This document shows positions 14,127 through 14,903 of a stretch of 63,024 bases of DNA, one piece after another. This stretch comes from Stylophora pistillata (lineage: Eukaryota). How positions within the stretch are numbered: position 1 is the first letter of the stretch; each line of letters opens with the position of its first letter. Below the pieces are notes generated by a model. The model ran no database searches, was not told the origin of the DNA, and saw nothing but the letters and a program-made list of their open reading frames with translations. Location of the stretch: assembly GCF_002571385.2 (NCBI RefSeq), contig NW_019218199.1, positions 159,395 to 222,418 of the forward strand, given 5' to 3'. Made by a program: the position numbers and the translations under genes.

Positions 14127-14903
14127 TTAAACACAATCCGTACGAATTGCCTTTGATCCACAATTCTTAAAAGTCACCATCTTATATTTTCCTGTGCATC
14201 CCCGCTTGCAGACCGGAATTAGGAAAAATTTGCCGCAAATGTCTTTTGGTAAGTAGTGTTTAATACAATTATTTCCTGGATTCCGAGCATATCGAGCATG
14301 TTCAAAGGAATTTTCTTTAATCTCATCCTTTACTACTGAGTTTTCAGCGAGAGTCGAAGTTTCTTCGAAGTCAGGCTTGTGATTTTCCTATCGTTCCAAC
14401 CAATCTATGTCTTCGGCGGTGTCCTTAGCAACATCTAGAGAGGTCTCTTGTTCTACCAGAAGCCAGTCTATATCGGCCGTATCATTTTCTTGAGAGATGG
14501 AAGGTTGCAAAGGGTTTGTAGGTCGTGCCTCTGTGTCCCCGTCAGAATGAAGCAATGTTAATATGGCGATGTGCATGAAAATGATGGAGCAGATACGTTT
14601 ACGGCCCTGCAAAGAGATACGAATGCATTATCTAAATTGCTTTCCTACTATTATAGAGCTTTCTTTAAAAAAAGTGTTAGTGAAATCCGCCTAAATATGT
14701 ACATTCACGAGGAGATATTGAACAAAAACTCACTAATTTACTGAAGTTTGTAAACATTAATGTAGCTTAAACATTCTTGGAAAGAGTGAATCAACGATTT
14801 TTTTCTTTTTTAGTTTTTAACTATGCAATGTGGAAACCATTATAAGGTAAATGTAAACTATACGTAGGTTAAAAAGAGTTACCTGTGAAATTCCAAAATT
14901 CAT
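14127..14903 (-). pseudogene. Peptide gene A: secreted prepropeptide with a 51-aa six-Cys cationic mature region; in-frame TAG in the pro-region (null allele, pseudogene or sequence error)
   Basis: Exon 1 14903-14883 (MNFGISQ|gtaact), exon 2 14606-14127 (ttgcag|). Hydrophobic signal ICSIIFMHIAILTLL, acidic pro-region, TAG at 14390-14388. The same frame continues to an RYAR furin-type site and NPGNNCIKHYLPKDICGKFFLIPVCKRGCTGKYKMVTFKNCGSKAIRTDCV*. Confidence 0.8.

Follow-up and report, generated by a model that had tools for sequence, protein, structure and literature searches.

The cystine knot consists of six invariant cysteines, with a ring of two disulfide bonds that is threaded by the bond between cysteines I and IV (PMC4079206). 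The IL-17s often lose one bond: PMC11087794 distinguishes the bond types T1A, T1B, T1C, T2 and T3, among them a cnidarian type, T3, without cysteines 5 and 6, and an invertebrate type, T1C, in which bond 3/6 is gone while 1/4 and 2/5 persist. Among the rows listed in the supplement of the same paper, IL-17R is recorded for Pocillopora and other cnidarians. The mini-monomer of TGF-beta2 (PDB 5tx2) is a knot protein from which the heel was removed while the fingers were left in place; this engineered mini-TGF-beta2 engages one receptor, which it inhibits competitively (bioRxiv 10.64898/2026.03.23.713733). The knots of the DAN, glycoprotein-hormone and bursicon type (Gremlin, sclerostin, NBL1, Norrin) have two fingers and an extra cysteine near each fingertip, as does the predicted model of the coral peptide described below. 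In NGF and Spaetzle the pro-domain is cut directly before the first knot cysteine. Growth factors of the knot superfamily often signal as dimers, and the IL-17 receptor has a double-FN3 ectodomain.

Small, secreted, cysteine-rich and cationic peptides of corals form a second group for comparison. The ShK domain has a helical fold and a cysteine frame of its own. It is carried by the coral antimicrobial peptides (AMPs) damicornin, AmAMP1 and digitiferin (PMC12496222), while the peptide described here has another cysteine frame and is predicted to be all-beta.

The peptide is encoded on the minus strand of a 63,024-nucleotide stretch of the Stylophora pistillata genome (the window). Our leading reading, to which we assign slightly less than an even chance, takes it for a natural heel-less and knot-less two-finger relative of the cystine-knot cytokines that would be released by furin-type cleavage and serve as a receptor-binding signal or antagonist.

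A two-exon gene for a cysteine-rich peptide

The peptide gene is real, spliced and composed of two exons. The coding part of exon 1 (14883..14903, minus strand) comprises the ATG, six further codons and a phase-0 donor; an intron of 276 nt with GT..AG borders (14607..14882, minus strand) separates it from exon 2, which starts at 14606, and the spliced frame (14903..14883, then exon 2) amounts to 166 codons with a hydrophobic N-terminus. Twenty-four sequencing runs were listed, 20 of which, from nine studies, contain the stretch; eight of these were assembled at the locus, four being tested for splicing (X8, X10, X11, X17) and four being genomic. The RNA runs X22-X24 share almost no sequence words with the stretch and carry no weight here. 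The intron is skipped in two of the four tested runs, X11 and X17, which come from two studies (library not on record) and read the exon joint (14605/14882) exactly. X8 and X10, polyA RNA on record, yielded unspliced, low-depth contigs alone, and the intron region is unbroken in all four genomic contigs laid across the locus. A TATAAA box upstream of exon 1 (15008..15013, minus strand) is a candidate promoter, for which the spliced X11 contig, extending to 14996, is weak support because contigs cannot reveal a transcript start. A candidate polyadenylation signal, AATAAA (13775..13780, minus strand), lies about 350 nt beyond the stop codon, and the X11 and X17 contigs extend 26 and 39 letters past 13800, a weak hint for a polyadenylation site.

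In the assembly the frame is interrupted by an in-frame TAG (14388..14390, minus strand) inside the pro-piece. The first-pass annotation had attributed the absence of the peptide from the open reading frame track to this upstream stop, which is most likely not biological: the assembly letter at 14390, first base of the TAG, occurs in none of the eight runs, every one of which gives a sense codon, so that the gene is very likely intact and the stop most likely an assembly error. Two alternative letters are found at this position, and X1 and X2, which stem from one sample, carry one each. That sample may be the source of the assembly, and the TAG at 14390..14388 is most likely a wrong base call at a heterozygous site. 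Assembly and reads also disagree at 14787, 14857 and 14559, with 14787 different in all four genomic runs; given the mismatches at 14390 and 14787, other stops in the Stylophora pistillata assembly may likewise be artefacts.

A pseudogene or a chance reading frame is an explanation that these data largely refute and that we regard as extremely improbable. It could appeal to the stop in the assembly, to the two polyA-RNA runs with nothing but unspliced, low-depth contigs, and to the fact that the Cys/RxxR pattern is not rare by itself: under a loose filter (at least six cysteines near the end plus RxxR), three segments of the window besides the peptide pass, making four out of 314 six-frame open segments of at least 55 aa. 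It is contradicted by the missing stop letter in the reads, by the spliced form in two runs of two studies and by an intact six-cysteine sister cluster of 174 members. The reality of the peptide therefore follows from the splice joint and the protein family, not from the Cys/RxxR pattern alone.

The remainder of the predicted signal peptide (precursor residues 8-34; 14526..14606, minus strand) has a basic N-region and a hydrophobic core with a Kyte-Doolittle 9-mer peak of 2.8. Its cleavage would fall before R35, at a place where an A-R/K/G-P motif is common to most relatives. The acidic pro-piece (14283..14525, minus strand) follows; it is 81 aa long, contains an internal 21-aa repeat (DIDWL twice), carries a net charge of -13 with the stop read as X, and ends in RYAR (14283..14294, minus strand), an RxxR site of the furin type after which the precursor would be cut. 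The mature domain and its stop codon occupy 14127..14282 of the minus strand (codons 14282..14130, stop 14129..14127), with cysteines at residues 6, 16, 25, 29, 41 and 50, hence a spacing of 9-8-3-11-8, and a charge of +8 (8K+2R-2D). Translation of the minus strand thus confirmed the first-pass description of a 51-aa peptide after RYAR, its cysteine spacing and its charge, as well as that of the strongly acidic pro-piece. A natural allele that lowers the charge at mature residue 26 is present in five of the eight runs.

A coral family with four invariant cysteines

A profile of three sequences searched against 1.84 billion representatives retrieved 40 matches at E<=0.001. Thirty-four of these relatives, the window peptide and its paralogue form an alignment of 36 rows; the six matches left out are P0022 (an insect repeat protein and a false match), P0019-P0021 (domain truncated or absent), P0031 (a gene model that joins two precursors) and P0043 (many extra cysteines). 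Cys6, Cys25, Lys26, Cys29 and Cys50 are invariant in all 36 rows, the family core reads C-x18-C-x3/5-C-x20-C, and the finger lengths of 18 and 20 residues are constant in 33 of 35 rows. The conserved core has four cysteines, and the spacing of six noted at first does not characterise the family. Median identity between domains is 51% (561 pairs); Stylophora P0002 and Desmophyllum P0027 share 62%. In 13 of the 14 pairs that lack a six-cysteine member, conservation is higher in the mature domain than in the pro-piece.

Among the 22 representatives looked up, the informatively named members belong to Stylophora, Desmophyllum pertusum and Oculina patagonica and are annotated as 'uncharacterized' or 'hypothetical'. 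The label 'stony-coral family' is based on these three organism names, the other representatives being unnamed. The family is without a Pfam model, and its copy in the window was hidden by the false stop. Pfam gave no match at E<=10 to peptide or precursor, and against 39 relatives it returned weak, unrelated rows alone, with no knot, IL17 or ShK family. Sequence searches of the PDB produced chance rows only, a word-indexed search for homologues of the 86-aa frame that follows the stop produced no candidate, and none of 585 pattern matches from a scan of metagenome contigs was confirmed. The literature search, which covered neither subscription journals nor figures nor most supplements, so that tables of toxins, AMPs or single-cell data may hold an earlier mention, found no description of the family: looking up the paralogue accessions returned no paper, and searching by motif gave an unrelated word only among the matches listed.

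The Stylophora pistillata genome (398 Mb) holds two clear family genes, one on each side of a midpoint-rooted tree. The second copy shares 99% identity with XP_022794300.1, a Stylophora pistillata protein entered as 'uncharacterized LOC111333042'. In addition, a segment of another contig (G000:C1637:18975-19094; E 0.95) looks like a decayed family piece without the first cysteine. The central branch between the two groups of the tree has a support of 82/86. Group 1, to which the window gene belongs, shows mostly acidic pro-pieces and RxxR sites; group 2 unites all 12 rows with a linker of five residues and the paralogue. In the three-residue-linker subfamily the pro-piece is acidic in 15 of the 19 scored rows, while pro-pieces of the five-residue-linker subfamily are near-neutral. 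An RxxR lies within 16 aa of the first cysteine in 20 of 35 relatives and in 17 of the 23 with a three-residue linker. The domain has a median charge of +6 (35 rows) and 5-10 aromatic residues; P0003 and P0018 have charges of 0 and +1.

These figures bear on a second reading, that of a host-defence peptide, in which the acidic pro-piece would keep the molecule inactive and a cationic, aromatic, four-stranded sheet would damage microbial membranes. An AMP or toxin had been offered as an alternative on the strength of the acidic-pro/cationic-mature layout; the layout is indeed present in the window gene (+8/-13) and is typical of one subfamily only rather than of the family. We consider this reading unlikely, although an AMP role would be compatible with any fold origin and with signalling. 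It draws on the charge (+8 here and +8 to +11 among the 15 listed members of the six-cysteine cluster) and on the aromatic content, on the frequency of acidic pro-pieces and RxxR in the three-residue-linker subfamily, on the charge-lowering allele at residue 26, and on a possible acceleration of the six-cysteine branch (see below). It is weakened by the two genes per genome and the fixed finger lengths, by the uncharged P0003 and nearly uncharged P0018, and by the near-neutral pro-pieces of the five-residue-linker rows. Knot growth factors, too, commonly have a basic mature domain behind a furin site. The coral AMPs described in PMC12496222 contain ShK domains, unlike the peptide, which has no ShK Pfam match and whose model is all-beta. 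The remark that the spacing differs from that of the ShK-like damicornin holds good for the peptide.

The pair Cys16/Cys41 is, judging from the alignment and tree, derived and was gained in this lineage. Two of the 36 rows have both cysteines: P0046 and the window peptide. They group together in the tree (support 100/99), and their sister, P0034, has four cysteines (98/96); P0048 is the one row with Cys16 alone. Cys16 replaces a tyrosine found in 26 of the 34 other rows, and Cys41 a glycine found in 33 of the 34. P0046 represents 174 sequences, and all 15 that are listed keep the six cysteines. Identity to P0034 is 38-42% in the mature part versus 54-57% in the pro-piece (p 0.09 and 0.14), the opposite of what is seen in 13 of the 14 other pairs, which hints that the six-cysteine branch is evolving faster, the difference being non-significant. 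A trefoil-like reading of the first four cysteines, based on their spacing, was rejected because Cys16 is not conserved.

A predicted two-finger fold outside the strict cystine knot

AlphaFold2 supplied with the 36 sequences gave a model with pLDDT 92.2 and pTM 0.65 (five models at 89-92) that has four strands (7-15, 18-25, 31-38, 42-50) and no helix. The two beta-hairpin-like stretches anticipated from the letters alone agree with this deep-alignment model, and Cys16 and Cys41 sit in its two hairpin turns, the tips. When the model was compared with 48,161 solved chains, 25 rows reached Z>=2 and none Z>=5; all but two of the 25, hence 23, belong to cystine-knot growth-factor proteins. The best is IL-17A (Z 4.3, rmsd 2.2 A, 51 aligned), followed by IL-25 (3.3), NGF (3.2), Gremlin-1 (3.0) and the Torso ligand (3.0); further knot rows are sclerostin, NBL1, PDGF, Spaetzle, vWF CTCK, VEGF-C, Norrin, artemin, myostatin, Noggin, miniature TGF-beta2 (Z 2.1) and coagulogen, some of these chains being identified by their titles. 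DAN/glycoprotein-hormone-type rows lie at Z 2.1-3.0 and NGF/Spaetzle rows at Z 2.0-3.2, and the structure tool warns that Z<8 may reflect merely a common arrangement. An earlier model from three sequences, of low confidence (pLDDT 56), had 0 of 15 rows in knot growth-factor proteins.

Foldseek returned no row at E<=0.001; NGF and Spaetzle rows stood at E 2.2-6.4, and after realignment of 94 Foldseek chains the 14 rows shown were NGF and Spaetzle entries solely. The comparison with knot folds by AlphaFold and Foldseek, proposed as a check in the first-pass annotation, therefore speaks for such a fold in the identity of the Z>=2 rows, and against it in that they all stay under Z 5 and Foldseek offers nothing significant. 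A structure atlas queried with P0027 yielded TM<0.5, a poor model and no usable feature match. ShK, SCRiP and defensin folds are absent from the fold-search listings, which is not an exclusion by itself. On the predicted model, and at low Z, two adjacent beta-hairpin fingers appear in the arrangement of the knot proteins, and the nearest structural branch is probably IL-17/NGF/PTTH/Spaetzle, whose rows are near-tied.

The register of the end cysteines is consistent with this placement. The aligned ranges end one residue past what we take to be knot Cys V in NGF, IL-17A, Gremlin-1, sclerostin, myostatin, Noggin and artemin. On human/mouse cysteine numbering, which we assume throughout, this places Cys50 at knot Cys V in all seven; Cys6 coincides with knot Cys I in three of them (NGF, myostatin, artemin). 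In vWF, Norrin, VEGF-C and PDGF-B the aligned range presumably stops about two residues short of the Cys V register. The cysteine spacing of Gremlin-1 is the sole numbering that was checked against the printed chain.

On its sequences, the peptide family falls outside the strictly defined cystine knot, since the six cysteines of the knot are invariant (PMC4079206) and only four are invariant here, the remaining two lying at the hairpin tips of the predicted model. The ring motifs C-x-G-x-C and terminal C-x-C are absent from the domain in all 36 family rows. The peptide had been described as lacking one knot disulfide; the III-VI bond is indeed missing, but so is the heel loop, and with both gone the knot cannot form. 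The likeness drawn at the same time to a DAN/glycoprotein-hormone/Spaetzle two-finger topology finds support in the predicted fold, with its 23 of 25 rows and a cysteine pair at the tips, and none in sequence (hhalign probabilities of 0.1-2.5%).

The candidate relatives differ in how they depart from the peptide. In the coral's own 11 DAN/glycoprotein-hormone loci an extra cysteine likewise lies near each fingertip. All 11 loci have G-x-C and terminal C-x-C and a heel of 14-24 residues, features that the peptide family is without, and hhalign gave them probabilities of 0.1-0.4%. As the fingertip pair of the window peptide is a recent gain, its DAN-like fingertip cysteines would be convergent. 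For the IL-17s, the bond set proposed for the peptide, I-IV and II-V, equals that of type T1C (PMC11087794). The coral's IL-17-like genes have a very short heel, 2+3 residues between knot cysteines II, III and IV, and fingers of 21 (finger 1) and more than 30 residues (finger 2) against 18 and 20 in the peptide, which at 45 residues from first to last core cysteine is about half the size of IL-17s. hhalign against nine of these genes gave 0.2-2.5%, and the best score was reached by 4 of 60 shuffles. The paralogue accession does not occur in two supplementary files of PMC11087794. A path from short-heeled IL-17-like ligands to the peptide family is plausible. The nine genes form a cluster of about 163 kb (G000:C12:235993-399441; L019-L027) with the motif C-x21-C-x2-C-x3-C and no terminal C-x-C; the cluster fits the cnidarian T3 type, and a tenth copy, on contig C235, contains a stop.

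With respect to NGF and Spaetzle, Cys6 and Cys50 would stand in the NGF Cys I/V register, while the peptide lacks the ring bond and the heel and has half the length. A genome search for the Spaetzle family gave no match, and a control search was equally silent. The mini-monomer of TGF-beta2 is man-made, has 92 residues and keeps the knot bonds; the coral domain is natural, has 51 residues and has lost the ring. The peptide is half the size of any solved knot protein that was matched.

The resemblance might also be convergent, with cross-linked hairpins having arisen independently in stony corals and matching knot proteins since few solved proteins have two long side-by-side hairpins. This concerns origin, an axis separate from function, and we hold it to be rather unlikely. 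The Z values below 5, the lack of a significant sequence link, the absent ring motifs and the lack of a heel-bearing intermediate among the 40 profile matches all suit it. It fits less well with end cysteines in knot I/V register across several independent families (again on the assumed numbering), with a prepro layout that puts the first cysteine few residues past the cut, and with the presence of short-heeled, cysteine-depleted IL-17-like genes in the same coral.

A possible two-finger ligand and its genomic surroundings

We favour the two-finger ligand because of the fold register, the fixed finger lengths, the small number of gene copies and a mature domain that is better conserved than its pro-piece. 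The steps after transcription and splicing, all of which we infer, would run as follows. The signal peptide would direct the precursor to the secretory path, where the acidic pro-piece may keep the +8 domain covered up to the moment of furin-type cleavage behind RYAR. In the released domain finger 1 would span Cys6-Cys25 and finger 2 Cys29-Cys50, held by the putative bonds Cys6-Cys29 (knot I-IV) and Cys25-Cys50 (knot II-V). Cys25 would thus correspond to II and Cys29 to IV, with three residues replacing the heel and cysteines III and VI lost, and the gained pair Cys16/Cys41 would tie the fingertips in the way that DAN-family proteins do with their extra bond. With its conserved surface of aromatic and basic residues, the domain might then bind a receptor ectodomain or another knot ligand. 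Without a heel the peptide may be one-sided and inhibitory, by analogy with the heel-deleted mini-TGF-beta. A bolder extension, for which we see only a small chance, is that stony corals own a natural family of heel-less, knot-less derivatives of about 50 residues that would each occupy a single receptor chain (of the IL-17R, Torso-like, Toll or TGF-beta/BMP type), fail to assemble the signalling complex, like the engineered mini-TGF-beta, and so damp immune or growth signalling, the six-cysteine form being a re-stabilised, faster-evolving offshoot.

It also counts against the ligand reading that a faster six-cysteine branch would suit defence better than a hormone, and that the domain is cationic and aromatic, as AMPs are. 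Such faster change, together with the putative added disulfide, would also suit a venom component of stinging cells, perhaps one that imitates a hormone and was derived from a cystine-knot gene. A signal peptide, an acidic pro-piece and a basic cut site make up the usual layout of cnidarian peptide toxins. Knot hormones do occur in venom, as with the glycoprotein hormones of cone snails (PMC13311285) and cobra NGF, a PDB row among the Foldseek matches. We nevertheless judge a venom role very unlikely: the two genes show no tandem expansion, most pairs are more alike in the mature domain than in the pro-piece, toxin-family matches come down to one sub-threshold Pfam row (Toxin_6, E 0.044) in one of 39 relatives, and the excerpted portion of a coral venom survey names other families (PMC12745922).

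If the fold assignment holds, a two-finger growth-factor scaffold can shed both ring and heel and stay conserved across coral families, and a minimal branch would join a well-studied superfamily. As the coral AMPs described in PMC12496222 are all of the ShK type, a cytokine-like signal and an AMP scaffold would each be new for coral immunity. A peptide of 51 residues can be synthesised, and its bond pattern, receptor binding and antimicrobial action are thus directly testable.

The window contains several other features. Directly downstream of the peptide gene lie two paralogous rhodopsin-type GPCR frames (4528-5334 and 10266-11102, minus strand; 7tm_1; 72% DNA identity). About 18 kb from the peptide gene, a TIR domain exon (33490-33933, plus strand; TIR_2, E 3.9e-21) and a transmembrane-like stretch 1 kb upstream of it (32073-32447, plus strand) probably belong to a receptor gene of the Toll/IL-1R type. 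At 35893-36264 (minus strand) a secreted-looking, cysteine-rich prepropeptide has a hydrophobic N-terminus, an acidic pro-part and the motif C-x3-C-x19-C-x4-C-x-C-x8-C-x2-C followed by GRKR; it has no Pfam match and no tblastn likeness to the 51-aa peptide family, and three further genome copies show 73%, 35% and 31% identity, two of them with an in-frame stop. Two related segments on the plus strand (19712-19935 and 46109-46640; 67% DNA identity) share a signal-peptide-like start and a C-x3-C-G motif, are both interrupted by stops or frame changes and have no Pfam match above threshold. Self-inverted stretches occupy 16471-16884 (418 bp at 90%), 16966-18238 (1275 bp at 97%) and 22565-23662 (1098 bp at 100%), the last being a perfect palindrome that adjoins an N gap and may have been produced by the assembly. 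At 20994-22568 lies a broken DDE transposase (DDE_Tnp_4), and two long frames (58860-59903, minus strand, and 60615-62900, plus strand) look like pieces of retroelements.
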